Counted from the first letter of the stretch, positions 1,053 to 21,939 are shown. The stretch: 50,823 nt of DNA from a virus (IMGVR_UViG_3300010005_000035:1-50823); one strand, 5' to 3'. The notes: generated from the sequence alone by a model not told the origin. Made by a program: numbers and translations.

Positions 1053-1625
1053 TCACTGCGGCCGGCGCGCCGCGATCTCTTTGATCAGCTGTTCGGCGGC
1101 CCGGAGCCGTTCATCATGCCGCGCCATCAGCGCGTCGAAGCTCTGGGCCTGGTCTATGAAGCGGGTGTTGGCGACGGCCTGCTGCTCGACCAAGCCGAGC
1201 TTGACGCGATCGGCAGCCTGCTCGCGCTGCATCGTCTGGATCGCGGTGTTGAGCGCGGTCTGCCCGTCGACCATCCCGCGCACCGTCAGTCCGAGCTGAG
1301 CGTTCGCAGCCTCAGCCGATTGCTTCGACGACCCGACCTGACTGGTCAGGTCCGACCGGACCGAGGCCGCCGAGACATTGATCAGGTACATCAGGCCGCC
1401 GAGCAGGACGGCCGTCATCGTCACCGTGGCGGCGAGTGTCGCGACCAACTGCGGAAAGGTCATCCTCGCATTGCGGTGCGCCTTGCGATCCTCCTCCGCC
1501 TTGTTCGACCACTCCTCGCGAAATTCGGCGAGGCTCCGGCCGATAGCGGTGACGTCATGCTTGACCAGGGCGAATTCAGCCTCGAGCTGGCCCAGCCTGC
1601 GTTCGGTGCTGCTCTCTGTCGTCAT
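1053..1625 (-). CDS. Lysis-cassette membrane protein (coiled coil-TM-coiled coil)
   Basis: One TM segment (LVATLAATVTMTAVLLGGLMYLI) flanked by heptad-rich helices; last gene of the late operon. Confidence 0.6.
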   Translation of the reverse strand: MTTESSTERRLGQLEAEFALVKHDVTAIGRSLAEFREEWSNKAEEDRKAHRNARMTFPQLVATLAATVTMTAVLLGGLMYLINVSAASVRSDLTSQVGSSKQSAEAANAQLGLTVRGMVDGQTALNTAIQTMQREQAADRVKLGLVEQQAVANTRFIDQAQSFDALMARHDERLRAAEQLIKEIAARRPQ

Positions 1626-1655
1626 CGGCTGAGGCTCCGGCGAGGGGCGGCGGCG

Positions 1656-2024
1656 CTACGGGGCCGGCGTCGGAGCGGCGAGCACCCCGAGCTTGGCCAC
1701 CAGCTTCTCCGCGATCTCGATCTCGGTCAGGCCGAAATGCGCGACGGCGTCAGGCACGGCCGAGCGCACATAGGCAACGCCGTCGGCGACTCCCGGGCTG
1801 GCGGGATCGAGCCGCATGGCGAGCGTGCCGGAGCCGATGCGGGCGACGAGCAGGCCCGCCGCATTGGTCAACGCCGCCTGCAGAGCGTCCCGACGGGAGG
1901 CTTCGACGTCGATTCCGGCCTTCTCCTTCAGCAGCTTGAGCGCATAGCCCAGGCCGGCGAGCAGCAGGATGGTGGCGATCTCGGTCAGGACCGGGCGCAA
2001 AGCGTCCAGCAACGTGTTGAGCAT
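1656..2024 (-). CDS. Putative holin
   Basis: 122 aa with N-terminal TM, directly downstream of the endolysin; GVAYVRSAVPDAVAHFGL resembles LL-H-like holins. Confidence 0.55.
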   Translation of the reverse strand: MLNTLLDALRPVLTEIATILLLAGLGYALKLLKEKAGIDVEASRRDALQAALTNAAGLLVARIGSGTLAMRLDPASPGVADGVAYVRSAVPDAVAHFGLTEIEIAEKLVAKLGVLAAPTPAP

Positions 2025-2077
2025 GATGAAGCTCCGATGTCAGAGGATCGGCGGCAGGCCCGGCCGCCTCGGGATCA

Positions 2078-2905
2078 TCAGATGCCGAGCGCTCGCCTAG
2101 CCTTGGCGAAGTAGGCCTCCGCCTCGTCGAGCCCGTTCCGCCCGCCATTGATGCGTTTGCGAACAGGTGCGACGGCGCCAGCGTCAGCGAGCCGATTGAT
2201 GTCGTGATCGGTCCAGAACTTCAGCGCAGCAGCAAGGCCCACGGCCGGCGTCCGCAAAAGTTCGGGGTGGTCCTCGAAGCCGGCATTGCGATAGTTCGCC
2301 CTGCCGGTGGTCTGCAGGATGCCGCCGCCGCGATAGCGCCAGCCGTCGCCCGCCTGGAAGTTGCCGAGATTCTTCCAGCCCCAGTCGCCGCCGTAGACGA
2401 TGTTGGCGATCTGCTCCTGCTGGGCCGCCCTGCCCGGCTTGCGGCCGAGCGCCTGACACTGAGCAATGCTAATCCGCTCACGACTGAACGTGTTCTTCAG
2501 CCCGTCGACGTCGTAGTTAAGGCTTTCCTCGAGCGCCCTCAGGCCGCCGGTCTCGGTTGCCGCCTGTGAGAGGAAATGCGCCATGCGCTGCTTCGTCACG
2601 ATGCCGGCGACAGCGAAGCGCGCGACCTCATCACAGAGCGCCTCGACGATATCTGCCCGCGCCTTCGGGCAGACGGCTTTGATGATTGCGGGCGTCAGGA
2701 TACCGGCACGATCCGGCGTGGTCTCGCGCTCGAGCATCTCGTGCAGCTTGGCGATCGTCAGCTTTCCGGCGACACCATCAGCCTTCAGCCCATGGCGCGC
2801 CTGGAAATCTTTGATTGCCGTTCTGGTCTTCGGCCCGATGTCACCGTCGACGGCGACCGAATAGCCGAGCGCGACCAGCGCGGCTTGCACCTCGTTGGGA
2901 ATCAT
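2078..2905 (-). CDS. Endolysin: peptidoglycan-binding domain plus GH19 lysozyme/chitinase domain
   Basis: VDGDIGPKT...FQARHGLKADGVAG; AHFLSQAATETGG, EESLNY, YRGGGILQTTGRANY, RINGGRNGL. Confidence 0.93.
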   Translation of the reverse strand: MIPNEVQAALVALGYSVAVDGDIGPKTRTAIKDFQARHGLKADGVAGKLTIAKLHEMLERETTPDRAGILTPAIIKAVCPKARADIVEALCDEVARFAVAGIVTKQRMAHFLSQAATETGGLRALEESLNYDVDGLKNTFSRERISIAQCQALGRKPGRAAQQEQIANIVYGGDWGWKNLGNFQAGDGWRYRGGGILQTTGRANYRNAGFEDHPELLRTPAVGLAAALKFWTDHDINRLADAGAVAPVRKRINGGRNGLDEAEAYFAKARRALGI

Positions 2906-3359: not shown

Positions 3360-3803
3360 TCAGGCCGGCCAGGACATCGCCGGCAGTTCGGCCAGCAAGG
3401 CCGCGACGTTGGGCTGCTCGCGCTGGCCGGCCTCGACCTTGGCTAGCTCAGTGTAGGCGTAGGCCCAGACCGCATCGCGCCAGGCGACGAAGGCCTGCGC
3501 CTCGGCCGCCCATACGGGATTGGTCGAGGCGACCCAGGAGGTACAGGAGACGCCGCTGTCGTAGTCGCGCGAGCGCGCCGTCGCATCGACATGCGCCTGG
3601 ATCGCGCTGCGATAATCGCCAAGATGGAGCCGCTGCGGATCATGCGCAGCGATCACGGCGTCGAGCGCGTCGCGCTGAGGCGCAGTCAATAGCTCGCGGC
3701 CGATGACGACGCCGGCCGAGGTCCAGGAGATCGGCAGCCCGCCGAGGCCAGCCGCCTCGAGCTCCGCCGCGAAGTACTGCCCAATAGCTTTGCTCATCGC
3801 CAC
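3360..3803 (-). CDS. Tail-fibre-associated protein / assembly chaperone
   Basis: Follows the tail fibre; AIQAHVDATARSRDYDS...WAAEAQAFVAWRDAVW...ELPAMSWP is typical of post-fibre proteins. Confidence 0.65.
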   Translation of the reverse strand: MAMSKAIGQYFAAELEAAGLGGLPISWTSAGVVIGRELLTAPQRDALDAVIAAHDPQRLHLGDYRSAIQAHVDATARSRDYDSGVSCTSWVASTNPVWAAEAQAFVAWRDAVWAYAYTELAKVEAGQREQPNVAALLAELPAMSWPA

Positions 3804-3804: not shown

Positions 3805-5271
3805 TCACTTCACCCGCATGATCTTGTTGACGATCGCAGTCGGCTGCATGCGGGAATGGGCTTGATTGGAGCCGAAGGGCGTGCCGCTGAAGCTCGAGCT
3901 CGCCGAGCCTGAGAAGATGGCAGTGATGCCGGTCAGCGACGTCGATGTGTTGTTGTTGGACGCCAGCGGCGAAGTCGAATTCTGCGGGCTGGAGTTCACG
4001 GCAGTGTTCGACCCTGACGCATTGACGCCGTGCGCGTGTCCAGGATCAATGATTGTCACCGAACCCGATACGCTGGTCGAGACCGAGCCGGTCGGCGTCA
4101 CCGTCGGCAACTGCGCGATCGTCAGCGTGCCGGTCTCGGCGCCGGTGCTTGCGCCAAGCGCTGTGCCGGCGACACCGGTCGCTGTGGTAATCCGACCAGC
4201 AGCGGTTCCGCCCATATTGTCGCGGCCTGCCGCGATGCGGCCCCGGAGATCGGGCACGCGAATCTCGGTAGACGGATTCGAGCATGGTGTTGCGGGATAG
4301 ACCGTGACGTCGCTTGAACCCGAGGACACCGCCTGCTGCGAGAGCGTGATCGTTGACGAGGTCAGCGTGAGGACGGTCGAGCCGGGGAAGATTCCGGTGC
4401 CCTCGACCTGCATGCCGGCGCCGAACATGGTGGTGTCGGACAGGCCGGTGATCGTGGCATTGCCGGAAACCCGGGTGGCGGATTGGACCTTGCCGAGCGC
4501 GGGAGCCAGCAGCGGCACGTTGGATCGGGTCAGACACTGACCGGCGGCGAACTCGTAATTGCTGTCCGGCACGTTGAAGCCGGCATAATCGAGCACCGTG
4601 CCGACGGGCACCGCCTGGTTTGCGACCGGCAGGCCAGTGGTGCGCGAGTAACTCCAGATTGACCAATTGCCGCCGCCGAGATTGATGGCGATAGCTTGGT
4701 CGCCAGAAGCGGTCGCTATGTCTGCTCCGCTCGGGAGGATCAGGCTAGTTGCGTTGTGAGTCAGCGTCAGCGCGCCGGAGAAGCGGATAAACTTGGCGGT
4801 GCCGATCACGGCGCTGGAACCAAGGCTAGTGATAGTCGTGGTGCCGCTGATCGTGATTGCGGACGCGGCCGATGCACCCAGGTCAACCGTCGCCGCGCTC
4901 GCCATTGTCGCGGCGCCGCCGCCGATCGGAGGCGCCCAGACATGGTTCGTCAGATCGACTGAGCCCACCGCAAGCCAGGCTGTGCCGTCATAGTGCTTCA
5001 GGACGTTTGGCGACGCTGACGTGTCGAGCCACCACTGGCCCTTTACGGCGACGCCGGCACAGCCGGTCGCCGGCACGGTCGCACCAGAATTGGAGGAGAT
5101 GACCGCGGCGAAGCCAAGGTTGACCGCCTGAGCGAAGGCGAGGCCGGAGACCGTACCGGTGGTCGGCATGCAGGCCGAGCCCTGGTCGGCGCGGGCGGGT
5201 GGCTGAGGACCGAGCGACAGCGCGAGCGCGAGCGCCAGCGCCAGCGCCATCCGGGCGAGGATGGTGCGCAT
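3805..5271 (-). CDS. Tail fibre 2 with tail-collar domain and N-terminal signal peptide
   Basis: Collar motifs VPVGTVLDYAG, VPDLRGRIAAGRDNMGG, AHSRMQPTAIVNKIMRVK; leader MRTILARMALALALALALSLGPQPPARA. Confidence 0.85.
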   Translation of the reverse strand: MRTILARMALALALALALSLGPQPPARADQGSACMPTTGTVSGLAFAQAVNLGFAAVISSNSGATVPATGCAGVAVKGQWWLDTSASPNVLKHYDGTAWLAVGSVDLTNHVWAPPIGGGAATMASAATVDLGASAASAITISGTTTITSLGSSAVIGTAKFIRFSGALTLTHNATSLILPSGADIATASGDQAIAINLGGGNWSIWSYSRTTGLPVANQAVPVGTVLDYAGFNVPDSNYEFAAGQCLTRSNVPLLAPALGKVQSATRVSGNATITGLSDTTMFGAGMQVEGTGIFPGSTVLTLTSSTITLSQQAVSSGSSDVTVYPATPCSNPSTEIRVPDLRGRIAAGRDNMGGTAAGRITTATGVAGTALGASTGAETGTLTIAQLPTVTPTGSVSTSVSGSVTIIDPGHAHGVNASGSNTAVNSSPQNSTSPLASNNNTSTSLTGITAIFSGSASSSFSGTPFGSNQAHSRMQPTAIVNKIMRVK

Positions 5272-5293
5272 CTGATGGGTTCCTTTCAGGTGG

Positions 5294-7462
5294 TCAGGAC
5301 TGAATTTCGCGGATCACCGCGTTGGCCGTGCCGGTGGTCGCGGTACCGCCGCCGATCCGGGAATGTCGGAATTTGTATGTCGTCGCAGATGTCGTATTCG
5401 GCTGGTCGATCCCGCCGAAGGCGACATACCCTTCCGTCTGCATGTTGGTTCCTGCACCGCTGACAACGGCGATGGTACCGGCCTGAAGCTGAGTCGAGGC
5501 TCGGATGAATTCGCCGGAATAGTAGCTGTTGATGCCGGCGCCACCGGCCGTGATGGTGCCGCGCGCTGTTGCCATGTACTCGATTATGTTGGCCGCCGAA
5601 GTCGGAGTGATCGTCACGGCGCCACCGGTGACGTCGACCATACTCGCGCTTGTCGTCGAGGAGCCGCCACCCGTAACCGATGCGACCTGAATTGTGGTCC
5701 CTGGCAGCGCCAGGCCCGGCCGAAAAATCTCGACGCGCGTCGGCGCGGCATCCCATGTCCCTGCTGTCGTCAGCCCGGAAGCCCATTCGAGATAGCCAAG
5801 AACGGTGTAGGGCTTGGCCGAGACCGAAGCGGCGCAGTAGAAGGTCTGAGCGCTGTCGGCGGCGCCGGCGCCGCCCTCCGCCGTCGCTCCGGCGATCGCG
5901 AACTGCTGCAGCGGGAAGACGGCGCCTCCCGAACGGGCATTTATCGCGCAGATCCGCACTGTTCCCGCGTCGTCGAAGCCGACGACCCAGAGCCGGAACG
6001 GCGTGGCATTGCTGGCGCCCGCGGTTGAGCCGGAGGAAATGACCAAGCTGAGGGCGCTGTTGACTGCCCGCTGCGCGAGCGAGCCGTCGCCGGCCGTAGC
6101 CGAGCGGAAGGGAATCGAGACGATCGAGCTGCCGCTCGGCGCCGCGCCGGCGGCATCGGTGAGGTTGATCGTCAGCGCGTTCAACGCGACCGAAGCCGAC
6201 AGGCCCGCATTGGTCAGAATTCCGACCGGCGCCGAGCTCGATGAGCCGCTCGATGCGGCCGTGACCCGCCCCTGAGCGTCGACCGTGACTGTCGCGAAAT
6301 TGTAGGTGGCGGCCGCGACGCCGGTGTTGGTGAGTGCGAGCGTGCGATCTGCGGTGAGGTCGCCGCCGCCGGTCAGGCCGGTTCCGGCGGTGATCGTCCG
6401 CGCACTGGCGGCAGCCCCGAGCGTGCCACGCGCCGCGGCGGCATCGGCATCATCCAGGAGCGTGCGGGCAAAGGCCGAGAAGTCCGCCAGCGCAGCAGTG
6501 CCGGTACCGGTGAAGTAGGGCAGCTTGTTCGCGGCCGAGGTCAGGCCGGCCAGCGCCGCGAGCTCGGCATCATAAGCCTGGACGTCGCTACCGATCGCCA
6601 GACCGAGTGCGTTGCGGGCGCCGGAGGCTGTAGAGGCATTGGTGCCGCCGGAAGCGATGCCGATCGGCGTCGAGGCGGAGATCGTTGTGAAAGCACCGGC
6701 CGCCGGCGTCGTGCCGCCGATCGGCGTATTGTTGATCGTGCCGCCAACAATCGTCGCCGTGTTGATCGCCGGCGAGGTCAGCGTCTTGTTGGTGAGGGTG
6801 TCCGTCGTCGCGCGGCCGACCAGCGTGTCGGTGGACGTCGGAAGGGTCAGGGTGCCGGTGTTCGAGATCTGCGCGATGATCGGCAGCGAAAAGGTGCCGC
6901 CCGTCACAGTCTTGCCGGTGAAGGTCAGCGCCGGCGGTAGCGAGACGGTTGGATTGCCGCTGGCGCCATCGCCGTTCGTTACCGTGATCTCATTGGCGGT
7001 GCCCGTCAGCGTGCGGAACTGGAAGCTGCCGGCACCGCTGCGGACGATCAGCCCAGTCGCACTCCAGCCACTGATGGCGTCGACGCAGGCGCCGGCCGCC
7101 GCGTTGCAGCCGGTACCGCCAGCCGAGACCGGGATCGTCAAGGCGTGCGTCGCGGTGTTGAGCGTCGCCAGCACCACCCATTGCGTGCCGTCCCAGATCT
7201 TCCAGCTGCGCGGCTGGCCAGAGGTGTCCATCCACTCCTGGAAGGTGAAGGGCGAGCCGCCGGCGGCGTTTGTTGGCGCGCCCGTGCCTGCGTTCTTCGC
7301 ACCCGTCGCCAAGATCGCAGCGTTGATCTGGCTGGCGACTCCCGTCGGGCCGCCAAACTGGTTCGGCCCGGAAAGTGGGATGTTGAGCGTGGCCTGTTGG
7401 GCGAGCGCAGGCAGCGCGCAGGCAAGCGCGAGCGCGCCGATCGAGCGACGGATGAGCTTCAT
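5294..7462 (-). CDS. Tail fibre 1 with N-terminal signal peptide
   Basis: Gly/Thr/Ala-rich; fibre motifs [12 protein letters not shown] and [27 protein letters not shown]; start reassigned to ATG 7462 (AGGA RBS, no overlap with J). Confidence 0.85.
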
Positions 7463-7484: not shown

Positions 7485-10400
7485 TCAGTAGCCCTGGATG
7501 TCGAGATTGACCTTGCGGGCGACGGCAACGCCGCCCGACTTGATCTTCAGCGTGCAGCCGGCCTTGGTTTCCGACGTGATTTCCGGAACGCCGTCACCGC
7601 CATCCAGAATGGTGACGTTGACGTAAGGCGTAGCCGAGTCGTTGGGGCCGCCATTGAACGGGGCATCCTCGCTGGCGCCGTCCGGCCGATGCACGATCGC
7701 GAGCCCCGCCGACCCAATGTTGAGCCCAAGCCGGTGGTCGATCCTATCGGGCACGTCGATCCTGAATTTGAACTGCTGCACGATCGCGATCGCGCGCGGA
7801 TCAAGCGTTGTCAGGATTAGCCGGAACTTGAAATGCCGCGCCCGATAGGAGCCCGGCGTAAAGCGCTGCCATGGCTCCCATTGGATGTTCTGCAGATAGA
7901 CGTCGTCGGTCTGGTAGACGTTATCCGGAGCGTAGATGTCTAGCGGATCATTGAAACCAAGCGCGATCTCCGCGAAGATCTCCACCTTGCGCGCGGCCTC
8001 CGCGGTGAAGATGTCCGGGTTCCCAAGAAAGTCGGGATCCGCCAGAATATTCTGGTCCGACCAGATCGCCGTGGTGGTGAGCTCGATTGTGACGGCGCAG
8101 GCCGCCTCGCGCCCGATATCGACGAAGTGCGCGCCCGGGATCTCGTAGGCGCCACTGCCTCCGCCGCCGTAATCAAGGATTGATGGCTCTGCCAGGAAGT
8201 CCGGGATCTCGAGCATGTTGCCGGCGCCGCCAGTGCGCAGATCCGAGCCCGAGACCGCGACTGTGCCGAAGGTCTTGCCAGACCAGCCAGTCGCCTTCTC
8301 GTCGTACTCAGCAACGACATTGCGGACCAAGGTCGCGCCGGTGATCGTGATGGCCTGCGGCTCAGCGGAATAGACCGTAAGCCCGGTGACGGGCTTTGCC
8401 ACGGCTGCGATCCAGTAGGTATCATTGCCGAGCGTGGCGAAGGGCGGGTGTGCCACAGTCTCGACCAAAAGCGCGCCCTCCCAGGTCACGCCCTTGCGGA
8501 TCTCGTACATGATGCCGCCGCGCCAGTCCTGGACTTCATCCCATGCGAGATTGCGCACGCCGTCGACAAAGACTGATCGCAGACGCCGGATGTTCGGCAG
8601 CGGGTTTTTGAGCAGGTTGCCCGTGACCGCGCTTGCCGGAAGTGTTGACCAGCTGGAGGTGGTGCCGTCTTCGAAGATCGCACGGACCCTGAAGCCGTAA
8701 TTGCCGAGCAGCAGGCCGTCGATGTCGACCCATTGCTGCGGCGCAAGGACGGTTTGGGTGCCCGTCCAGCCGGCTGCCCCAACACCGCCAGCCTGCTCGT
8801 CGCGCCACTGCGCCTCGAATCCGCGAACTTTGCCAAGCCGCGGCGCTTGCCATTCCATCCGGACGACGACGGTCGTCGCGCCGGAACCGGCCTGCAAAAT
8901 CTGCTCCTTTACCGTGAGGTTGCGTGGTGGCAGCAGGAACGGATCGGCTGGCTCGGATATCTTCGAATCGAACGGCGGGATTGGGCCGGTGTCCGAGTGC
9001 TGCAGTTCTGGCGCGTCATCGACCAGGGTTAGGCGCGCCCGCAATTCGTCCTGGTGCGCGATCTCGAAGACGCGGCAGACGATCGACTCCCGCTCGGCCT
9101 CGCCGAACATGAAGAGGTCGCCAGGCGCCGGCAGGTCGCCATCACCCGCGATCTGCACTAGATTGCTCTCGCCTTCAACCGTGACGACCTCGCGGATCAC
9201 GCTGGCCCCATCCGCGAGGCGGAATCGAATCTGATAGGTCTTGCCGGCCTCCTGAGTGATCTGTTCATCAAGCGTCACGGTGCCTATACCGAGCGCCCGG
9301 ACCCGGCCGGTAAAGAGCCCGACTTTGATGACGTCGTGTGCCAGGCGAACACGATCGCCGCGGGTGCAACGAATGTTCTCCCAGTCGACAAGGATCGAGT
9401 ATTTCTCGGGCCGTAGCCGCGCCTGCGCGATGTGGTACCGACCGTACTTCCAGTTCAAAGCCTCACTGGTCAGCCCGTCTGTTTCCAGCGACTCGAAGAG
9501 AGTAGCGTTGCCGGCGTCATAGCCGTCGTCGTAGATGATCCGCTCGTCAGACGCCCAACCCTTCGCTTCATTCAAGAATTTCAAGCGCAGACCATGTGGG
9601 GGTCGCGAATACACTCTGCTTGCCGAGAAATTGGAAGAATTGCGCGGCGTAAAGTGCTGCACAACTGGGGCGTCAAAACGATCCCAGATCACGCTCCATT
9701 TGCCGTCGCGGAACGTCGGCACCGCCCGACCGGCAGCAGAGATCAGCGAGAGGCGCTCATAGACAGAGGTAGGCTCCTCGACAACGACGTCATAGGTGAA
9801 GCCGTTCTGGTTGCAGTACCACCACCAATTTTCGAGCGTCTCGGCATCGATCAGGTCGCTGTGCACGACTAGCGCGTTCGCCGGAGATTGCAGCACCAGA
9901 CGAAACAGGTCGGCGGGATTGCGCGAGGCAGCGTAGGTGACATAGCCGGAGCCGGTGAAGGCCGTGCACATCGACTCGGCAACGCAGTTGAAGGTGTCGA
10001 TCACGGACGAAAGCTGGTCGGTCGCCTTGATGCGCATCGCGATCAGCGCGAGCGGCTTTGGCGGAATTACAGGCACGATGTTTCTCATCGAGCGCAGCGT
10101 CGTCCAGACCACCTCATTGACGTAGTTCGGATCGGTGTAGTCCGGCGTGATCTTTACCAGCATAATTTCGTAGCGTCCCCGTGGCACGCGGACCGTCGAG
10201 CCGACGCGGGCCTGGCCGAGTTCGCGCCAGAATGCGAGCTGGCCGGTCAGGACGAAGGACCCAGACTTCTCGTGTCGGAAGAACACGTTGACGAGCACTT
10301 CGAGTCCGTTGCGCTCGCCCGTCGTGGTATCCAGCCTGAAGATGCCTTGCGGCGCCGCCATCTCGACGGTGAATTCGTCGATCTCGGGATCCGTAAAGCG

Positions 10401-11252
10401 GCGGTTGAGGACGTTCTGCTGCAGCAGGACCGACAGTTCGAGTTGCTCGGCCTGCGCCGCAAACAAGGTCGGCGCCGTGTCGCTCGCATACCCCTCGCGA
10501 ACTTCAATCTCGACGTTGCTGAAATTCGCGAGAGGCGTCTCCCCGATCTTGAGCTCGCTGATCCGCAGCGGGCCGACACCGACACAGAATAGCAGCCTCA
10601 GATACTGGTCATTGCCGACGAGTTCGGTAAACGGCTTGGCTGCATAAGGCGGCGAAATCCGATGCTTGCCGAGCACAACCGGGACAGTGCCGAATTGACG
10701 CGCCTGGTTCTGCGCGCCGGCGATCGACATCAGTCGCGCCTGCTCCTCACCGGGGCTGAGCGCGTTGCTATCAGACGTCGGCTTGGATTTGACCGGAAAC
10801 AGCGCGTTGACGAGTAGGCTGCCGCCAATCGAGATGGCAGCGCCGAGCAAAGCGGCGCCAAATGTGCCCGCGGCGAAGCCTGCCCCCAACAATGGCGCCG
10901 CAAAGCCACCCGTAACGATAAGTGCCACCACCGCGACGACCACCATCGCGATTGTTCGCCAGATGCCCTTTCCCTGCATCAGCGGCTGGAAAGTAACCAG
11001 CGCCCCTGGCTTCGGTCGCACGCGATGCCAGCGCCCGGACGGAATTACGTCCTCTCCGACATATGCGGCTATCGCAAGAGATCGGCGGTCGGGCCACGCA
11101 AGTTCGGCCATCTCCTCAATCGTCAGCCCGGCCGGCAGCTGACGGCAAATCCGCTCGCCGCGAAGTGGATGTCGCCTGACTATGACGTCGACGAGCCCCT
11201 CCCCCGGCCGCAGAACCTGCGCCGGCTCCCCGGTGGCAACGATGCTGTTCAT
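7485..11252 (-). CDS. Tail tip / host-specificity protein J with fused gpI-like N-terminus
   Basis: 1255 aa; [18 protein letters not shown], FnIII-like repeats; follows NlpC/P60. Confidence 0.9.
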
Positions 11253-11647
11253 TACCGGCTTTCGTGTCGAAAATAGCCGCGGATGCGCCGGGCGATGCGC
11301 GGACTGGAAAGGGGCTCGATCACCGAATCGGCGCCCGCTTCGACATGCAGCATCAGGCCGGGGCCGGCGACGATGCCGACATGCGGCACGCCGACATTGC
11401 GGATCTCGACTAGGTCGAATTCGCGGGCGGCCTCGCGCTGGATTTCGCGCCAGCAGCTGCGCCCCTCGGCGATCAGCCGCTGCAGCGTCTCTCGATCGGC
11501 GGTGCTAACGTAGTCCTCTGCATGGTGCGGCAACGCGATCCCGAGCTGCTCGTCATAGACCAGGCAGGCGATGCCCCAGCAATCGACGCCCATGCGGCTG
11601 CGCCCCCTCTCGGCGAAGGGCAGCCCCACGTAGCTCTTAAGGCGCAT
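11252..11647 (-). CDS. NlpC/P60 tail assembly protein
   Basis: YVGLPF...GVDCWG...HVGI...MLH catalytic motifs. Confidence 0.92.
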   Translation of the reverse strand: MRLKSYVGLPFAERGRSRMGVDCWGIACLVYDEQLGIALPHHAEDYVSTADRETLQRLIAEGRSCWREIQREAAREFDLVEIRNVGVPHVGIVAGPGLMLHVEAGADSVIEPLSSPRIARRIRGYFRHESR

Positions 11648-12147
11648 CAGAACAGGCCTGGGAAGGTCGCCGGCGAGAATGTCAGATAGGGAAACGGTTC
11701 AGTGGTGAGCCCGTTGAGCGTCAGCGTCAGCGTGATCTGACCGTCATCATAGTCGGCCGCGACCATCTCCAAGAGCGGCAACTCGACCTCGATGTCGTCG
11801 GGCGCGGAGGCAAGAACCAGTTCAATCCGAAACAGCGCCGGAATCGTCGAAGAACGCAAAAGGTTGACGAGCTCGCGGCCGACATTGTCGAGGACAAGCC
11901 GCACCATAGGCGTGGCATCGTCCTTCTCGTCGGGGAGCGGCAGCGTCATCGGCAGGAAGCGATATTCCTCGCCACGGCTCCGCGTGCCGTAAATCAACGG
12001 TGTAACGGAAAGCCGCTCGGTCGGGTCGGTCGACAGCAGTTCGGGCGCCGCAAGCACCGGGTGTGTGATCCTGATCAGGAAGACCGGCACCTCGCCAGCC
12101 TCTTGCGCATTGATTTGCGCCCGCAGCAGAAGCGACAGCGACCTCAC
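11647..12147 (-). CDS. Minor tail protein (DUF1833-like)
   Basis: LIRITHP, LPDE, LVLDNV, EPFP...FPGLF; position in the tail-tip cluster. Confidence 0.8.
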   Translation of the reverse strand: MRSLSLLLRAQINAQEAGEVPVFLIRITHPVLAAPELLSTDPTERLSVTPLIYGTRSRGEEYRFLPMTLPLPDEKDDATPMVRLVLDNVGRELVNLLRSSTIPALFRIELVLASAPDDIEVELPLLEMVAADYDDGQITLTLTLNGLTTEPFPYLTFSPATFPGLF

Positions 12148-12503
12148 GGCAGCACCTCGAGATCAAGTACAACCTGCCACCAGCCCGCCCCTAGGCTAGA
12201 TATTGACGGCGGTTGCTCACCTTCTCGGACGAGAAGCGTTCCGGCGCCTTCCTGGTTTGGGAACTCAAATGGCAGACTGCCGTCGAGGAGCGTCGAGCGG
12301 AAAAAGGCCTCCAGTGTCTCTTTCTGGGCCGTATTGATGATCATAGATCCCTTCATTGGCGCAGGCGCCGCCGATGTGCGCCGGCGAACCTTCGCAGGGC
12401 CCGCGTCGTTCTTGCTGCGAAGCCGTCCGTCCGGGAGCGCTCTCCCGAAGTCGGAGCGCTGAAACTTCTGCGGCAATGAGATCGGCCAGGGATCGACCGC
12501 CAT
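12144..12503 (-). CDS. Distal tail protein
   Basis: WPISLPQ...GPAKVRRRT...FFRSTLLDGSLPFEF; directly after the tape measure gene. Confidence 0.75.
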   Translation of the reverse strand: MAVDPWPISLPQKFQRSDFGRALPDGRLRSKNDAGPAKVRRRTSAAPAPMKGSMIINTAQKETLEAFFRSTLLDGSLPFEFPNQEGAGTLLVREGEQPPSISSLGAGWWQVVLDLEVLP

Positions 12504-12504
12504 T

Positions 12505-15500
12505 TTAGCGCCTCGTCAGCTGTGTCTTGCCGCCGAACTGGGTTTGGAAAGCGCGACGGCTGTCCGAGCCCGGCGTCGAGATACGGTCAGCAACCGCGGT
12601 ATCGATCATCGTGACGATGTCGAACCCGCCGCTGTCGTTTTTCCGCTTCTCGGTCTTCACCTCGGCGCCGGCGTTGTTGATCACCTGCATATTGAACTGC
12701 GCGCCGCCTTGGGCCGCGGCGACGCCGAGCCGGCCGGCGCTGTCGCGGCGCAGCGGCATAATCGCTTCCGGGCCGGCTTCGCCCATCAGCCCAGTGCCCT
12801 TGGCGAACGGGAAAAGCGTGGGCCGATCCACGATGCGATTGGTGAACGCCCCGCCGCGCGCAAACGGGATGACGTTTCCGTAATCGAAGGCATGCCCTTT
12901 CGCGCTTTTTTGGGTGACAGTCGCCCATCCTCCTCCGGCGGAGCCACCGGAGCTACCGCCGAACAGCGCGCTGACGATCGACGCGAGCCATCCTCCGCTT
13001 CCGCTACTGGTACCAAATAGCCCATTGGTGATCTGGTTCGATGCGATATCGAAGAGCTTGTCCGCAACACGATCGAGTGCGTTTTTCAGCGCTTCCGAAG
13101 CGCTCTTGCCCTGCCGGAGATCCGACAGGAAGCCCTTGAGGGCATCCCGGCCGATGTTCTGGATCTCGACCATCCTATCGCGCAGGGTCGTCATCTCAGC
13201 GATGCGCTGCGCGTTGGCGAGATAAGCTTGTCCCTCTTCGCTCTTCAGCGAGATACCTTGCCGCCGCAAGTCCTGCTCGGCGCGCATCGTCGCCACCAAG
13301 CGGGCGCGCTCCGCCTCGTTCTTGCCGATCGAGGCGATCTCGAGCTCGAGCATGCTAATCTGCTCGGCCTGTCCGTAGAGCATACCGAGCGCGCGACCCT
13401 TGACCGCTTCGGTGTTGGCAGCGGCGAGAGCATTGCCGTACTCAGTCAACCGCTGGTTCAGCGAGCTTTGATCGGTGATGCCCACAGCGATGAGCTGCCT
13501 ACGCTCCTGCTCGAGCGCGTTCCGGCGCTGGAGAAGTTCGGAGCGCTGCGTCTCGCTGAGATTGCCGGAGCGCGTCGCGGCGTTGACCGATGCCTCGACC
13601 GCCGCCGCTTCTTTCGATTGCGCTACCTTGAGCGTGAGCTCCTTGTTGGTCCTGGCGATCTCCTCCCGCATCAACCGCTCGAGGACCACGCTCTGATTCT
13701 CTCCGGTCGATCGAGAAATCTGGACGGCCTGCTGCCGCAGCTTGGCGACGTCGGCAGACGCCGAACCGAGGCTGCGGACGGCAGCCTCCTCGCGCCCCAA
13801 GCTTTGGACGTTGTCATTGGCGGACCGACGCGACTCTGCTGCTGAGCGAGCGGCGTCCGCGTCGATCTGCTTGGCCGCTAACTTCGCCGCGTTATCCCGC
13901 TCCTGCGCGGTCGTGGCGGTCCCCAGCATGTCGTTGCGGGCAAGAGCTTCAGCGGTGGCCCGTCGCTCAGCAACGGTGGCGTCGTTGGCCGCCTTCATCC
14001 TGATGTCAGCGGCGGCGTTTGCCTTAATCTGCTCTGTGGTCAGTCCGCCGGTCGCCTTTGCATAGTCAGCGGCCTGCGCCTTGGCGCGTTCAAGGGCAAT
14101 CGACTGCTCTTTGATCTGCGAATTGATCTCCGCGAATTTCCTGGCGTCGAGGCCTGCACCGGTGTCTCCGGAAGCGACGAGAGCATTCCGGCGCTGAGTT
14201 AGCTCCTCGATCGACTTTTCGTAGGCGGTTATGGCCTGTGTCGCCAAGCGATAGGCCAACTCGTCCCTCTGCGCGCCTTGCAGCAGCCCATCAGCGGAAT
14301 TCACACGCTGATTGCCCTCCACTCGCTTAGCCCGGTTGCGCGCGGCCTCATCTTCGACCTTGAGCGTCGCCTCCAGTTCCGAACGGCGCTGACGTAGGTT
14401 CGCAATCTCAGCCTTCAGCTGGTAGTCCTTGCCAGGCGCGGACGTGCCAGCCTGCAGGCGCTGTTCGAGCGTCGCGAGTTCGCTGTTGATCTCCGCGAGG
14501 CGCTCGCGATCGTTCGGGCCGATCAGCGCATTGCCAATAGACTGCTTGGCGCGATCGAGCGGCTTGGAGATGAACCGCTCCCAAGCCTGATCGAACTTGG
14601 ATTGGGCATTTTCAGCGCCCTCAGTCGCTCGCGCGACCTCATCCATGAGCAGCTTCTGCGCCCGCAGCCGATCTCCGTAGTCGCTCGCGGTACGGATTGC
14701 CCGAAGCGTCGTGCTGTCAAGGGCGCCGAGCTTCTCCGATAGCATCTCCGCACCACGCACTGGATCTCGGAATGCCGCCGCAAGCTCCTTTGCAGCCTCC
14801 GGCGCATCCTGGCCGGTGACGCGAGCATAGTCCTTCGTGATCTTTGCCAATTGAGGAAGGCTAGAGGTCGCAAGTTGCCCAAGACGCGCATACTCCGCAG
14901 CGATCAGCCGAGATTTCGACACGGTGGTGTCGGCCGCGACGGATGCATCCTTGGCCAGCTGATCGAAGGCATCGCCGGACACGCCAGCAGCGCGACCAAT
15001 GCCGAGTAGCGAGTTGCTGAGTGCTTGGCGCTCCCCGAGAACGGCGAACGCCGAGTAGATCGCCGTCGCTCCTGCAACGACCGCCGCGATCGGCCCAAGA
15101 GCAGGCGCAATCATTGCCGGCAGGCTGCGGAAGAAGCCCACAACCGAACCGCGCGACGCGGCGAAGATGTCGGCGATCTGTGTACCCTGCTGGATCAAGA
15201 CCGTCGTGAATGACTGGCCCGACGCCAGCGACACTCCAACGTCCTGTACCTGGCGGCCGAGGTTGATTAGTTCGTGCCGGGCAAGGCCAACGCCGCTCGT
15301 ATACTTACCGGTCGCCGTGTACGCCCCTTCGAGAGCCCTCTTAGTGTCGTCGTGGACACGATTGATGTTGGCGATCGTCGCCTCGTACTGCTCTCCGGAT
15401 AGAGAACCGCGGGACTGCAGCGCCGTTGCTTCCCGCAAGGCCTTGTTGCGTCGCTCTTCGTTGACGATGAGCGGATTGTAGGCTTGGTTTAGCTTGGCAA

Positions 15501-16068
15501 CGGCCTGCTGGTCCGCCTCCAGGAAAGCGCTGGCGGAAGCCCGCGCACTGGCGGATGGCGCCGCGCCGATGCCGAAGCTGGCATTGATCCGGGACTGGGT
15601 GGCCTGGGCCTGCGCAAGCCGGCTCGTCGCCGCGGCGGCCCGATCGGCAATCTCAGCGGTGGCCGCCATGTGCGAATTCAGCGCCTGCACCACCGGCGCT
15701 AAGCTGACATAGCCCTGTTGAGCCAACCGGGCGGCATCCGCTGTCTGTCCAAACTTCCGGTAGACACCGTCGAGAGCCGCCGCCGCCCGTGCGGGGTCCA
15801 TCCCGCGATCCAGCGCGTTGCCAACGCTCCTGATCGCGCTCTCGAACTTCGCCGCTTGGCTATAGCCCTCAATGTAGCTCCGGCTCAGCGAAGAGACGCC
15901 GGGCGTTGCCTTCTTCGCAGCCGCATCGATCTCAGCAAGCGATTGCCCGACCGCCTTCGCCGAGGCCACCATCGCTTCGTCAGCGCCAGCCTTCTGGTTC
16001 GCCGCGCGTACATACTGCGCGACGTCCATCTCGGCCGAAACGCGGAGTGAGGAGAGCTTAACGGTCAT
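12505..16068 (-). CDS. Tail tape measure protein
   Basis: 1187 aa Ala-rich helical; NLGRQVQDVGVSLASGQ...QQGTQI and C-terminal FARGG...GEAGPEAIMPL. Confidence 0.95.
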   Translation of the reverse strand: MTVKLSSLRVSAEMDVAQYVRAANQKAGADEAMVASAKAVGQSLAEIDAAAKKATPGVSSLSRSYIEGYSQAAKFESAIRSVGNALDRGMDPARAAAALDGVYRKFGQTADAARLAQQGYVSLAPVVQALNSHMAATAEIADRAAAATSRLAQAQATQSRINASFGIGAAPSASARASASAFLEADQQAVAKLNQAYNPLIVNEERRNKALREATALQSRGSLSGEQYEATIANINRVHDDTKRALEGAYTATGKYTSGVGLARHELINLGRQVQDVGVSLASGQSFTTVLIQQGTQIADIFAASRGSVVGFFRSLPAMIAPALGPIAAVVAGATAIYSAFAVLGERQALSNSLLGIGRAAGVSGDAFDQLAKDASVAADTTVSKSRLIAAEYARLGQLATSSLPQLAKITKDYARVTGQDAPEAAKELAAAFRDPVRGAEMLSEKLGALDSTTLRAIRTASDYGDRLRAQKLLMDEVARATEGAENAQSKFDQAWERFISKPLDRAKQSIGNALIGPNDRERLAEINSELATLEQRLQAGTSAPGKDYQLKAEIANLRQRRSELEATLKVEDEAARNRAKRVEGNQRVNSADGLLQGAQRDELAYRLATQAITAYEKSIEELTQRRNALVASGDTGAGLDARKFAEINSQIKEQSIALERAKAQAADYAKATGGLTTEQIKANAAADIRMKAANDATVAERRATAEALARNDMLGTATTAQERDNAAKLAAKQIDADAARSAAESRRSANDNVQSLGREEAAVRSLGSASADVAKLRQQAVQISRSTGENQSVVLERLMREEIARTNKELTLKVAQSKEAAAVEASVNAATRSGNLSETQRSELLQRRNALEQERRQLIAVGITDQSSLNQRLTEYGNALAAANTEAVKGRALGMLYGQAEQISMLELEIASIGKNEAERARLVATMRAEQDLRRQGISLKSEEGQAYLANAQRIAEMTTLRDRMVEIQNIGRDALKGFLSDLRQGKSASEALKNALDRVADKLFDIASNQITNGLFGTSSGSGGWLASIVSALFGGSSGGSAGGGWATVTQKSAKGHAFDYGNVIPFARGGAFTNRIVDRPTLFPFAKGTGLMGEAGPEAIMPLRRDSAGRLGVAAAQGGAQFNMQVINNAGAEVKTEKRKNDSGGFDIVTMIDTAVADRISTPGSDSRRAFQTQFGGKTQLTRR

Positions 16069-16432
16069 GCGGAGGAGCTTTCTTCGCCGCCTCGCGAGCG
16101 ACGAATTCGAGCCATTCGGCGTCGAGCGCCATGATCAGGAAGAGGAAGGTGTCGAACTCGGTGCCGTCGATGCGATGCCGGCTTGCGAAAGCGTCAATCG
16201 CCAGGAACGACAGAGGAGCCTCGCCGCCATAAGCGCCGTATTGCCGGTCACCGCGCAAGCAAGCCCACGCGCGCCAGTAGAACCCGTGCCAGGCGCGCAG
16301 CTCCCCGCGCTCCTCACCGTCTTCTTCCTGCTGCAGTGGGCCAGCGTCTCCTTCCTCATCTCGGACTGATGCCAGCCAGTCGTCTACGTCTTTCCGCTCG
16401 AGCTGATAGCGGAAGACGAGCCTCAGTTTTTT
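16058..16432 (-). CDS. Tail assembly chaperone gpT-like segment, reached by -1 frameshift
   Basis: Open -1 frame starting at the slippery site (…KKLRLVFRYQLE…FYWRAW…LDAEWL); no own RBS/ATG. Confidence 0.75.
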   Translation of the reverse strand, partial: KKLRLVFRYQLERKDVDDWLASVRDEEGDAGPLQQEEDGEERGELRAWHGFYWRAWACLRGDRQYGAYGGEAPLSFLAIDAFASRHRIDGTEFDTFLFLIMALDAEWLEFVAREAAKKAPPHDR

Positions 16433-16836
16433 GCTTCGGCCTCGACGAATTCGACATCGCGCTTGCCGACGCGGCTGGCGGCCCAAAAGACGATGTCACG
16501 CATCAGCCGGTGCTCTTCGGCGAGCAGCGTTTCGCGCGCAGCCTCGGCGCTGTATTCCACGTCGAGACCGTCCCAGCGGACAAGCAGATGCTCGACCGCG
16601 AGCCTTCCGTCAGCGCGCGCGAGATCGTCTGGCGGAATGGTGCCGCCGTCGAACTTCTTCGCGAGACGCTGCATCTCGGCAGCGCGCGCGGCGATATAGG
16701 GAGGATACTGAGTCGACCGAACCGTGACGGTCAGACCGGGAAGCGGGCCCACATTGGGCCAGTCCTTCACAACGATCTCTTCGCCTTCCCTCTCAAGGGC
16801 AAGGTCGGACGCGAGGGAGGAGAGCTTGATTGTCAT
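16423..16836 (-). CDS. Tail assembly chaperone gpG-like
   Basis: Between tail tube and tape measure genes; ends GCA AAA AAC TGA. Confidence 0.85.
   Translation of the reverse strand: MTIKLSSLASDLALEREGEEIVVKDWPNVGPLPGLTVTVRSTQYPPYIAARAAEMQRLAKKFDGGTIPPDDLARADGRLAVEHLLVRWDGLDVEYSAEAARETLLAEEHRLMRDIVFWAASRVGKRDVEFVEAEAKN
16426..16432 (-). other. -1 ribosomal frameshift heptamer A-AAA-AAC
   Basis: X-XXY-YYZ heptamer in correct phase just before the gpG stop. Confidence 0.85.
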
Positions 16837-16855
16837 CGGTGTCCTGGAGAGTTGC

Positions 16856-17004
16856 GGCGGGCGCCCCCGACAGGGCGCCCGCCATGGCCGTGATCACGCG
16901 CCAACTCGCCGCCGGCACTACCGGCATTCGGACACCAATCCGAGCGGCTCTTTGCGCCTCGCCGTGTCGGCGACGAGGGTATTCAGTTCCCGGCGCTTGC
17001 CGGG
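16856..17004 (-). ncRNA. Structured cis-RNA with a kissing-loop pair upstream of the tail chaperone
   Basis: Hairpins at 16957-16978 (loop CCGACA) and 16856-16883 (loop UGUCGG) have complementary loops; further hairpins lie between them. Confidence 0.6.
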
Positions 17005-17010
17005 CTCAGA

Positions 17011-18492
17011 TCAAGCGACGTATTCGAAGCGATCCAGAATGACCTGGGCGCCCGTCGCCGGGTCTTTCGACGCCTGCCAGCTCAGAGGCAACATGACGTC
17101 GGTATTCTTGCCCGAGGCGTTCGGGTTTCCATCGCCGCGATAGGTCACGCGCGGGAACTGCCAGACCAGCGCCTGGCCGTTCTTCTCGATCCAGGAGGCG
17201 ATCGAGGTCGGCGTGCCGTCATAGAACTTCTGCAGCATCGCGTTGCTGCCGAAGTAGGTGTTGATCTGGCCGGACACGGTGCATTCGCCCTCGCGAACCG
17301 CGACAGGCGAGGTTTCGTCGACCGACTCGTTGGTCCGCAGGTTGTTGTTGACCGTGAAGGTGAGCTCCTGGGCCCAATTCGGCGAAGTCAGGCGCCCGCC
17401 ATTCTCATAGAGCCGGCCGACATTGGCATTCGCCGCCATCACGACATTGGTCGTGACCGCTTCCGGGGATGCATCGAGTGAGGTCGTGCTCTGGCTGCCC
17501 CCCATGCCGGTGAAGGTCACCGAGCCGGTGATCTTCTGGCGGGACGTAATGCTGTGCTGCAGCTCACCGGCATGCATGCCGAGGTTGACGATATAGGTCG
17601 GAACGGCTTGCCCCATGAACCCGCGCTCGATCGTGAACGAGGTCGGAGTAGTGCCATTGCGGATCTGATCGCCGAACCAGACGCGGATCGTCTTGCCAGT
17701 GCCGGAGTCGGTCGTCCAGCCGGACGGCAGATGATCGAGGGTGAGCTTGGTCGCGGCGATCGCGGTGACGCGCGCCCAAGCCGCGCGCCGGGCAGCCGCG
17801 CCTGCGGTCACCAGGAAGGCGAATGTGGTGGCGTCGGCAGTGCCGCCGATCTTGACGAATTGGCCGACGCGGAGCCCCAGCGTGGTGAAGTCGAGCGCCG
17901 TCGACCCGAGGCCGTCAGCGAGAGCGGTGACGTCGCCTGACGCGCCCTCGAAGCCGACAACCTTGAGCCGGGCGGCGGCCGGCGGCGCTGCTTCTGCGAC
18001 CAGACCCGCGCCAAGGACCGCGACCGACGTCGCGCCGCCCGTCGTCACCTTCCAGATGCCGTTGTTGGCGGCATTGCTGAAGCCGATCGCGCGCAGCAGA
18101 TGACCGGCCACGAAGGCGTCGCCCGTGGTGACCGTGAAGACGTCCGTGGTATCGGTGACCGCGGTGATGACGCTGTCAGCGGTGCCATCATTCGCGCGCT
18201 GCGGGGTATTGAGCCAAGCGCTCATGAAGGCTGAGCGATAGACCTCTGAAAGCGGGCTCTCGTCGACCGGATAGGAGATCTCGAAGTTGATGCCGCCGCC
18301 TGCCGCCTGCATGACCTTGATCGGGTCGTCGAGCATGCGGTCGTCTCGGATCTCCTCCGGGTCGACGTACTCGGGCGCGAACGACAGGCTCTCCCCCGTG
18401 GTCCGCATGGTGCGCATCCGCGGCGTCGTCGGAGTGATACCAGGGGTGGTCTCCCTCACCATGGTCAGGCGCAGGCGATTGGCAGAGGTCAT
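17011..18492 (-). CDS. Major tail tube protein with inserted domain
   Basis: ETTPGITP...RTTGESL...EEIRDDR, TSFTIER, G-ECTVSGQINTYF; position upstream of the chaperones. Confidence 0.85.
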   Translation of the reverse strand: MTSANRLRLTMVRETTPGITPTTPRMRTMRTTGESLSFAPEYVDPEEIRDDRMLDDPIKVMQAAGGGINFEISYPVDESPLSEVYRSAFMSAWLNTPQRANDGTADSVITAVTDTTDVFTVTTGDAFVAGHLLRAIGFSNAANNGIWKVTTGGATSVAVLGAGLVAEAAPPAAARLKVVGFEGASGDVTALADGLGSTALDFTTLGLRVGQFVKIGGTADATTFAFLVTAGAAARRAAWARVTAIAATKLTLDHLPSGWTTDSGTGKTIRVWFGDQIRNGTTPTSFTIERGFMGQAVPTYIVNLGMHAGELQHSITSRQKITGSVTFTGMGGSQSTTSLDASPEAVTTNVVMAANANVGRLYENGGRLTSPNWAQELTFTVNNNLRTNESVDETSPVAVREGECTVSGQINTYFGSNAMLQKFYDGTPTSIASWIEKNGQALVWQFPRVTYRGDGNPNASGKNTDVMLPLSWQASKDPATGAQVILDRFEYVA

Positions 18493-18504
18493 CTAGGCGC
18501 TCCC

Positions 18505-18530
18505 AAAGAAAAAGGGCGCCACGAGCGCCC
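18505..18530 (-). terminator. Intrinsic terminator-like hairpin before the tail tube gene
   Basis: GGGCGC-TCGTG-GCGCCC followed by TTTTTCTTT on the minus strand. Confidence 0.6.
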
Positions 18531-18599
18531 TGCATGCCTTGCCCAAGGGTTCGATGGTCGCTGCCGGCGCGGGCCACGCGCGGGCATGGGTGGAATTGA

Positions 18600-18836
18600 T
18601 CAGGGCTTCCGCCGCGCCGGGGCGGGATCAGCCGCAGAAGGCTCGGCCTCGGTCGCAGCGACTTCCGCCTTCTCCACAGCGGCCTCTGCGGCCTTCGTCT
18701 CGGCGCCGGCGATGAACTTGCGCGCCTTGAGATCGCTGATCGGGAGCTTGCTGCCTTCCAGGTCAGCCTCGGTCACGGTTGCCCCGATCGGGAAGCGGCG
18801 GGTCTCGTGCGGGAACGGCTTCAGAACGGTGAACAT
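18600..18836 (-). CDS. Small virion-region hypothetical protein
   Basis: AAGGAG RBS; MFTVLKPFPHETRRF..., 78 aa. Confidence 0.65.
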   Translation of the reverse strand: MFTVLKPFPHETRRFPIGATVTEADLEGSKLPISDLKARKFIAGAETKAAEAAVEKAEVAATEAEPSAADPAPARRKP

Positions 18837-18847
18837 GGGAATCTCCT

Positions 18848-19264
18848 TCAGGCTTCCATGAGCCGCCAGTCGATGCTGACGGTAATGCTCCACGTGGCGC
18901 CTGCGTCGTCGCCGACATCGCCAAGTCCGATCGACGCATCGGTGAACTCGAGGGCGTCGTCGAGCAACTTCGCGCCTCGGAATATGTCTGCGATTGCCTT
19001 CGCCCGTCTTCGGGCGGTACTGCTGCCGGTGCCGGTCGGGACGAAGACGTGCACCCACAGCACGCCCTCCTCGTCCCAGCGGTTCGCCGCCTGCGTCTCG
19101 GCGCCGATGCTCTGCTGCGCATAGGTCGTGCCGGACACCTCGACCGCCACCCACCCAGCTTCCACCGGCGGGACGAAGTTCTCGTTCTCCCAAGCGATAT
19201 CAGTTTCCGACCAGTTGGCGCCCAGATGGGCCCGAACCGCATCGTAGACGACGTCGGAAGGCAT
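18848..19264 (-). CDS. Tail terminator protein
   Basis: IAWENENF.PP...EEGVLWVHVFVPTGTG; synteny. Confidence 0.75.
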   Translation of the reverse strand: MPSDVVYDAVRAHLGANWSETDIAWENENFVPPVEAGWVAVEVSGTTYAQQSIGAETQAANRWDEEGVLWVHVFVPTGTGSSTARRRAKAIADIFRGAKLLDDALEFTDASIGLGDVGDDAGATWSITVSIDWRLMEA

Positions 19265-19920
19265 CAGCCGAAGCCCTTCATGCGCATAATGATTGCGGGA
19301 TAGGTCATCCGCGCGCCGGCTTCGGTGTCGCGCCGGATCTTGCGCCGGGCAAATGGCTTGTAGCCGCGCCGGAATCGCCCTTTCAGAACGTATCCGTTCG
19401 CGATAAGGACCATCCGGAACCGGACGTCCACCACCCGACCGAACTGCGCTTGAACCCTCCGCCGGACATCTTGAAAAACCGCGTCGCCCGTCGAGACGCG
19501 CTGAAAACCTGACTCAATCTTTCGCGCGTAAGGGACTGTCGCGACAAAAGAAACCTCCTCCCCGGCTGCAATCTCGGCGTCCGGTCGCAGCACCTGCGAT
19601 CCGACCATCACGACATGCGAGGCGATATAATCGCCGCTCTTGCGCGGGGAGCGCTTCTCAAGCTCCGCGAGTGTGAAGGCAATGATCGGCTGCCAATAGG
19701 AGAAGTCGTAGACGATCGGACCGGGAAGGACGACCGACTCCTCTTCCGCGCCGTCTCGGCCGTTGACGTACTTCGTATAGATTGTCGAAGCTTCGCCCGC
19801 GGCGATCGCGTCAGCGAGCGAAGACCGGGCCAATTTGGCGAGCTCGCGCCCGATGACGTTTGGCGCCAGATCGGCCGTGGCCAATTGCAGATCACGAGCG
19901 AAGGTCTCGAACCGGGCCAT
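19264..19920 (-). CDS. Neck / tail-completion protein (HK97 gp10-like)
   Basis: SPRKSGDYIASH...VPYARKIE; synteny. Confidence 0.65.
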   Translation of the reverse strand: MARFETFARDLQLATADLAPNVIGRELAKLARSSLADAIAAGEASTIYTKYVNGRDGAEEESVVLPGPIVYDFSYWQPIIAFTLAELEKRSPRKSGDYIASHVVMVGSQVLRPDAEIAAGEEVSFVATVPYARKIESGFQRVSTGDAVFQDVRRRVQAQFGRVVDVRFRMVLIANGYVLKGRFRRGYKPFARRKIRRDTEAGARMTYPAIIMRMKGFG

Positions 19921-20962: not shown

Positions 20963-20963
20963 G

Positions 20964-21371: not shown

Positions 21372-21432
21372 GACGCCCTCCTTCAGGGCTGGCGCGCGGC
21401 GAGGTACGCCGCAGCGCGGGCTGGTGTGAGGG

Positions 21433-21879: not shown

Positions 21880-21904
21880 CGGGGTTCTCCGATCTGAGGG
21901 AACG

Positions 21905-21931
21905 AAAGCGGCGCGGCCAGTGAGCCGCGCC
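21905..21931 (-). terminator. Hairpin/terminator after the capsid gene
   Basis: GGCGCGGC-6nt-GCCGCGCC followed by GCTTTCGTT. Confidence 0.5.
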
Positions 21932-21939
21932 AGGAGCCG

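Follow-up and report, generated by a model that had tools for sequence, protein, structure and literature searches.

Predicted secretion leaders and paired cysteines in the tail fibres of a temperate siphovirus suggest a periplasmic route of fibre assembly

The stretch of viral DNA analysed here (IMGVR_UViG_3300010005_000035, 50,823 nucleotides (nt), referred to as the window) belongs to a temperate siphovirus. Its late genes lie on the minus strand and encode terminase, portal, an S49 protease, capsid, tube, tape measure, an NlpC/P60 protein, the central tail-tip protein J, two tail fibres, a small protein and a lysis cassette. A repressor-like and an integrase-like gene are located to the right of this operon, the integrase label having been assigned by reading the sequence, without a family match. 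The two fibre genes, F1 and F2, directly follow the gene for J and are embedded tightly in the late operon with gaps of 22 nt. Both products open with a leader of the kind that directs export, followed by a shared N-terminal domain (N-domain), and these leaders together with the cysteines of the fibres are the subject of this study. Bosea provides the named homologues closest to F2 (N-domain 88% and 81%), from which we infer a Bosea-like host.

Each leader has a basic n-region, a hydrophobic core and small residues at positions -3 and -1, and F2 begins with MRTILARMALALALALALSLGPQPPARA directly before DQG. Shine-Dalgarno-like sequences (AGGA, AAAGGA) are located close 5' of the ATG of F1 and F2. 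Signal peptides were called by a crude rule of our own, run with controls, and not by SignalP. Among 24 late genes the rule picked two, F1 and F2, and it was negative for all J proteins (0/27). The basic, hydrophobic and AxA-ended leaders behind a ribosome-binding site that a preliminary description had proposed for both fibres were thus confirmed. Could the leaders be chance Ala/Leu-rich extensions, or wrongly called starts in GC-rich DNA? Ala-rich random sequence does trigger the rule in 2–3% of draws (138/5000 and 122/5000 random 45-mers of the mature composition of F1 and F2, <3%). However, no downstream start gives F1 an intact N-domain. The next in-frame start is codon 51, which lies in the shared domain, and the leader therefore cannot be skipped; F2 has alternative starts at M8, which retains the hydrophobic core, and at M35 within the domain. 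In addition, the F1 leader is retained in three close relatives with indels that are in-frame only. Among homologues, 15 locus copies carry an in-frame stop just 24–36 codons before the domain, so that a leader start is forced. Together with the co-variation of leaders and cysteine pairs described below, this renders chance extension or miscalling hardly credible.

The distribution of leaders was examined across homologues with an N-domain profile of 12 rows (7 with a leader, 5 leaderless). The profile matched 5857 representatives at E 0.001, and the best 150 of these 5857 were used, a sample that favours close relatives. From 195 proteins, 177 with a full N-domain were retained (17 partial or repeat matches and one non-match were dropped) and reduced at 80% identity to 135, comprising 108 leadered and 27 leaderless proteins. 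Leaderless homologues start M-S-Q, whereas leadered ones carry a variable leader of 15–64 residues before the same position. With the domain start defined by the profile, Ala occupied position -1 in 105 of the 108 leadered homologues, and the small-residue rule for -3 and -1 held in 105/108. As the cut falls at the start position of the leaderless homologues, cleavage would restore the leaderless N terminus. Otherwise diverse in sequence, the leaders contained K or R among the first eight residues in 105/108 and a hydrophobic core in 107/108 cases, and our rule was positive in 129/145 leadered but in 0/31 leaderless homologues. The leaderless copies are truly so, as 16 of 18 such locus copies have an in-frame stop no more than 14 codons upstream. 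Of 43 loci encoding N-domains, 25 had only leadered and 17 only leaderless copies, and one had both. Among sampled genomes an N-domain match occurred in 7/401 at order level and in 3/111 at genus level, Bosea sp. LC85 being the only genome with a leadered copy; in this set leadered fibres are rare.

Tat signals follow a consensus similar to S/T-R-R-x-F-L. Such a motif was present in none of the 108 leadered homologues, and the Tat route was rejected on this ground; RR occurred in the first 12 residues of 18/108, including F1. A lipobox-like match was found in one of the 108 and in neither F1 nor F2, and a lipoprotein route was rejected as well. Separately, a subgroup of homologues (P0019, P0022, P0024, P0027, P0028, P0031 and others) has leaders of 48–53 residues in which a conserved stretch containing NDRGG separates the hydrophobic core from the final AxA, and in this subgroup a pro-peptide or double cleavage is possible.

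Each mature fibre has exactly four cysteines, as the preliminary description stated: residues 119, 126, 505 and 543 in F1, which has one more in its leader, and 34, 71, 246 and 330 in F2. Only F2 has a pair inside the shared N-domain; those of F1 are located in the shaft (119/126) and in a distal domain (505/543). Across homologues, at least two N-domain cysteines were found in 102/108 leadered versus 2/27 leaderless proteins (Fisher p 2e-19), and in loci checked at the DNA level in 36/42 leadered versus 0/18 leaderless copies. The co-variation of leader and cysteine pairs, which the preliminary description had named as a check, was thus evident. Even cysteine counts prevailed in leadered proteins, both in the whole mature protein (85/97 versus 10/25 leaderless) and outside the N-domain (78/90 versus 10/24). 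Three alternative N-domain pairs (6/43, 32/52 and 5/25) cover nearly all cases, and no listed protein has more than one. In 58 relatives of F2, five pairs of alignment columns were gained or lost jointly: both cysteines of 34/71 were present in 46 and a single one in 2, with corresponding figures of 15 versus 1 for 132/154, 31 versus 4 for 342/483 and a less clean 6 versus 3 for 246/330. The shaft motif of F1 has both cysteines or none in 104/104 occurrences (both 9, none 95, one 0), although the nine two-cysteine motifs come, apart from OP596612, mostly from four Bosea-type proteins that were counted twice. These patterns suggest that the fibres contain disulfide bonds. DsbB is present in 3/3 host genomes with leadered fibres; PF01323 matches were not taken as proof of DsbA, the family being too broad.

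Based on these results we concluded that leaders and cysteine pairs are a real feature under selection. Export of the fibres alone is very probable, because the leader co-varies with paired cysteines and the cut site matches the leaderless start. The preliminary claim of export with disulfide bonding is strongly supported by the same two features.

F1 and F2 are tail fibres of known build. F1 matches PHROG tail fibres (E 8e-10), and the C termini of both proteins are fibre-tip strands. Their N-domains align with 30% identity over 111 columns (E 9e-9), confirming that, as initially described, a homologous domain follows directly after both leaders. No solved relative of the N-domain was found by sequence. 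The model of F2 (pLDDT 81; below 50 for residues 376–430 of the mature model) comprises an N-domain of helix plus beta structure, an XD-like sandwich and a collar with a needle insert. The second domain matched CBA120 TSP4 (Foldseek 7rej, E 1.2e-5; VIA Z 4.9, root-mean-square deviation (rmsd) 4.3, 89 aligned). The collar/needle region matched the T4 gp37 tip (2xgf; VIA Z 7.5, rmsd 6.4, 114 aligned) and T4 gp12 (1ocy; VIA Z 7.4, rmsd 3.0, 102 aligned). The Z scores for gp37 and gp12 are middling and agree with the PHROG and BFVD matches; the model also matched collar proteins, and the Pfam Collar match to F2 (E 0.007) lies under the cut-off.

A candidate docking site is provided by the C-terminal region of J, the last 280 residues of which are common to J-type and gene transfer agent (GTA)-hub-type proteins. 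The model of this region shows a jelly-roll and a lectin-like domain, the latter matching the tip of AP22 gp53 (VIA Z 8.5); matches were of a generic jelly-roll/lectin-like kind only, and Foldseek gave none at E 0.001. The region was encoded upstream in 41 of the 43 N-domain loci (three matches were weak) versus 1 of 39 loci without an N-domain, which may, however, lack J in the flank. Among eight cultured phages matching the J C terminus, an N-domain fibre came next in 5/5 examined. No N-domain copy occurred outside a J context among the loci examined, except for two loci without a J match in the flank. We presume from these sequence data that the N-domain is a tail-tip anchor that docks on the C-terminal region of J. 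The jelly-roll of J (window 7488–8321, minus strand) carries three acidic inserts in its loops, in which D-x-L/F recurs periodically; these might form a pseudo-threefold surface for docking or metal binding.

Taken together, F1 and F2 would be expressed late and exported by Sec to the periplasm, where the leader would be cut at AxA and the fibres would fold as trimers and form disulfides. Heads, tails and J would remain in the cytoplasm. Once the holin opens the inner membrane at lysis, the fibres would dock on J, and the particle would thus be completed in two compartments. It may be speculated that slow breakage of the outer membrane allows time for mixing, as the lysis cassette (1053–2905) yielded no lipoprotein spanin. 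We assign this whole route, from export through periplasmic disulfide folding to docking on J, a probability of roughly 60%; the use of Sec rather than Tat, the disulfides, periplasmic trimer folding and virion attachment are steps that we infer. The preliminary description had the fibres loaded onto tails at or after lysis, which is the best reading of the co-occurrence of N-domain and J and predicts attachment to the virion.

The fibres might instead be exported and disulfide-bonded yet stay free, so that after release at lysis they cover receptors on debris and neighbouring cells and protect progeny, while J alone adsorbs. Such a role is improbable, although it shares the well-supported export, J has a lectin-like C-terminal domain of its own, and one locus (L016) encodes a leaderless fibre next to two leadered ones. 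The presumed anchor is intact at the mature N terminus in all leadered copies, and 25/43 loci lack a leaderless copy for the J site. Were leadered fibres never attached to the tail, both dock and anchor would be retained to no use in most of these phages.

A number of points weigh against fibre assembly in the periplasm and docking at lysis. The co-occurrence of N-domain and J could in part reflect gene linkage, and dilution after lysis disfavours attachment. The Fisher tests and cysteine counts ignore kinship; on a tree of 141 rows with cysteines masked (built without P0035, P0135 and P0166), the leader state changes at least 19 times, only 9/138 branches are well supported, and the three usable independent contrasts, none of them opposite, give p 0.25, so that this test is underpowered. 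The N-domain cysteine pair is missing in F1 and in 6/42 leadered locus copies. Conversely, three database proteins starting MA-SQ retain the 6/43 pair without a leader; their starts may have been called wrongly, as happened with P0035. Disulfides in virions have, moreover, been described with no leader reported, as far as the text available for PMC10811340 and PMC13576161 goes. Finally, F2 retains an HxH needle motif, a type that in T4 depends on a chaperone, which fits better with cytoplasmic folding, and the 145-residue protein encoded by the gene coupled to F2, assembly-like as a lead only, is leaderless here and in two close relatives. This protein gave no match in family searches, and the lead comes from Atlas feature scores of 0.83–0.86 to XkdW, Caudo_TAP_N and DUF4376 clusters. 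If it chaperones the HxH needle of F2, it is in the wrong compartment. It may cap the fibre at lysis, or indicate a cytoplasmic pool.

Such a pool would be expected if the fibres had a dual location or were assembled tethered to the membrane: a part would escape or stall in export, fold in the cytoplasm with the leaderless partner and join tails before lysis, and the disulfides would form later in air or lysate. Besides the leaderless assembly-like gene, RR or basic pairs are conserved in the F1 leaders of Bosea, and virion disulfides can arise spontaneously (PMC13576161, in part). However, dual location accounts neither for Ala at -1 exactly at the leaderless start (105/108) nor for cysteine pairs that track the leader. 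Moreover, a small leaderless partner follows 12 of 13 tabulated leaderless fibres, but in most leadered cases, as read by eye, the next gene is a lysis gene or again a leadered one. We therefore regard dual location as unlikely.

Further observations concern small genes next to the fibres. In L016 (1862–7050), the phage that encodes a leaderless N-domain fibre alongside two leadered ones, the small post-fibre protein is leadered. Additional small virion-type genes next to leadered fibres, L025:4601–5002 and L017:9320–10078, encode proteins with leaders and four cysteines. In L010, a leaderless fibre is followed by a leaderless 131-residue open reading frame (ORF; region 5970–6360) that opens with a near copy of the first 28 mature residues of F1, and then by a leadered 643-residue protein without N-domain; the ORF may represent an adaptor stub onto which an exported outer fibre fits.

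The preliminary description also considered adhesins or receptor-blocking factors of the lysogen. Bdellovibrio MAT proteins give this idea a model, being phage-like trimeric, mosaic fibres with a conserved N-terminal domain after a signal peptide (PMC10769870, text seen in excerpt), and one relative is named 'membrane-anchored cell surface protein' in one source, an automatic name. The fibre genes are, however, located within the late operon with minimal gaps, and a promoter scan, which is weak for alphaproteobacteria, returned 0 sites where 0.6 were expected. In addition, the fibres have no membrane anchor or lipobox, and the J context holds for all loci examined save the two exceptions above. 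Expression as lysogen adhesins is thus unsupported and very improbable. MAT fibres differ in being chromosomal bacterial surface adhesins, of which 13/21 have an S74 chaperone according to the same excerpt. No sequence kinship to MAT was found, only a weak fold match (E 0.15). Identity with MAT fibres was rejected, as F1 and F2 are prophage late genes without an S74 match and their N-domain is helix plus beta, whereas that of MAT is beta-rich.

Among cultured phages, Bradyrhizobium phage ppBdUSDA122-1 (OP596612) encodes J followed by two leadered, cysteine-paired N-domain fibres, with a pair of the 32/52 type and a fibre order reversed relative to the window phage. This siphophage is produced spontaneously and has a tail of 125 nm according to the available text of PMC10127595, in which 'signal peptide' and 'tail fiber' do not occur. 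The fibres of the other cultured phages examined are leaderless. In Rhizobium phages RHph_TM16, RHph_I4 and RHph_Y3_1, Roseobacter phage CRP-701 and Pelagibacter phage HTVC202P, the same N-domain follows the same type of J C terminus and the bodies are of collar type, but the proteins start M-x-Q without a leader and have 0–1 N-domain cysteines, and the next gene is mostly a small leaderless one of assembly type.

Parts of the proposed route have parallels in other phages. pIII of phage Ff is a receptor-binding protein with periplasmic disulfides. Both pIII and pVIII are virion proteins with type I signal sequences that use the SecYEG route, as stated in the section of PMC4823517 available to us. 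In contrast to the window phage, a tailed double-stranded DNA phage with anchorless fibres, these proteins are anchored in the membrane, and the particle leaves the cell by extrusion rather than lysis. An inovirus pIII-type virion protein was considered and rejected, as the window encodes capsid, portal, terminase, tube and endolysin and the fibre C termini are fibre-tip strands. The P22 tailspike attaches late to particles. T4 long tail fibres assemble separately and join fibreless particles last (PMC3004832, in part), which makes late attachment of fibres biochemically plausible by analogy; they differ in being leaderless and folding in the cytoplasm with gp57A and gp38. Virion disulfides linking core tail subunits are described for Agrobacterium phage Milano and for the siphovirus tail tube gp39 (PMC10811340, PMC13576161); the available texts of both contain neither 'signal peptide' nor 'periplasm', and an export route is not described there.

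To our knowledge, the prevailing view is that tailed phages build their particles from cytoplasmic proteins alone. The phage proteins known to be exported serve in lysis or exclusion or are moron factors. No tailed-phage precedent for leadered tail fibres or virion proteins was found in the literature searched, at the level of titles and abstract starts and with subscription papers mostly outside; as far as searched, an export route for tailed-phage fibres is undescribed, its parts being of known kinds. A fibre family in which secretion leader and disulfide pairs are gained and lost jointly implies a second assembly compartment, and a periplasmic route would explain the use of host Dsb enzymes by phages, a dependence that is only supposed in the available part of PMC13576161. 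The annotation of such genes, which currently pass as secreted hypothetical or surface proteins, would change. More tentatively, and with less confidence than for the window phage itself, a large and mostly uncultured group of alphaproteobacterial tailed phages might build two-compartment particles that are armed only at lysis, with surplus fibres masking receptors on the dying cell. As docking would be late and the anchor is shared, co-resident prophages or the lysate might then supply fibres in trans and so alter the host range with no change in the genome. The coordinates of all features are compiled in Table 1.

Table 1. Features of the fibre module and surrounding late genes (window coordinates; aa, amino acids).
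Feature	Position	Strand	Basis
F1 (fibre 1), long side tail fibre with leader, 722 aa; Cys pairs 119/126 and 505/543	5294..7462	-	
F1 predicted Sec signal peptide, 21 aa, cut ALA↓QQA	7400..7462	-	own rule
F1 N-domain (predicted tail-anchoring module), no Cys	7115..7399	-	
F2 (fibre 2), 488 aa: leader, N-domain, XD-like beta-sandwich, collar domain with HxH needle insert; Cys 34/71 and 246/330	3805..5271	-	
F2 predicted Sec signal peptide, 28 aa, cut ARA↓DQG	5188..5271	-	own rule and homologues
F2 N-domain with C34/C71 pair	4909..5187	-	pair in 46/58 aligned relatives, single in 2
F2 second domain, like XD domains of CBA120 TSP4 and T4 gp9-gp10; possible branch point, lead only	4636..4926	-	Foldseek, VIA
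F2 collar/needle region	3808..4620	-	VIA; Pfam Collar under cut-off
Leaderless 145-aa protein coupled to F2; tail-fibre-assembly-like, lead only	3360..3797	-	
Central tail-tip protein J, 1255 aa, leaderless	7485..11252	-	phrog_31, E 1.5e-116
J C-terminal region (about residues 978-1255), candidate fibre dock: jelly-roll with acidic loop inserts and small lectin-like domain	7488..8321	-	
Lysis genes: GH19-type endolysin with peptidoglycan-binding domain, holin-like protein of 122 aa, 190-aa protein with a single membrane span	1053..2905	-	
Remaining siphovirus late operon, all leaderless: NlpC/P60, DUF1833, tape measure, tube, terminator, capsid, S49 protease, portal, terminase	11252..27851	-	

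Outside these features, a lipoprotein-like 117-residue ORF near the repressor gene (42734–43090, plus strand) is a candidate exclusion factor, and operator-like 18-bp palindromic repeats surround the repressor region at 41162–41179, 43472–43489 and 43516–43533. Between the endolysin gene and the fibre module, the opposite (plus) strand has a hydrophobic 92-residue ORF without a family match (2969–3247). At the left edge of the window (1–990, plus strand), a gene encoding a PAS plus HWE histidine kinase is likely host flank or a moron.

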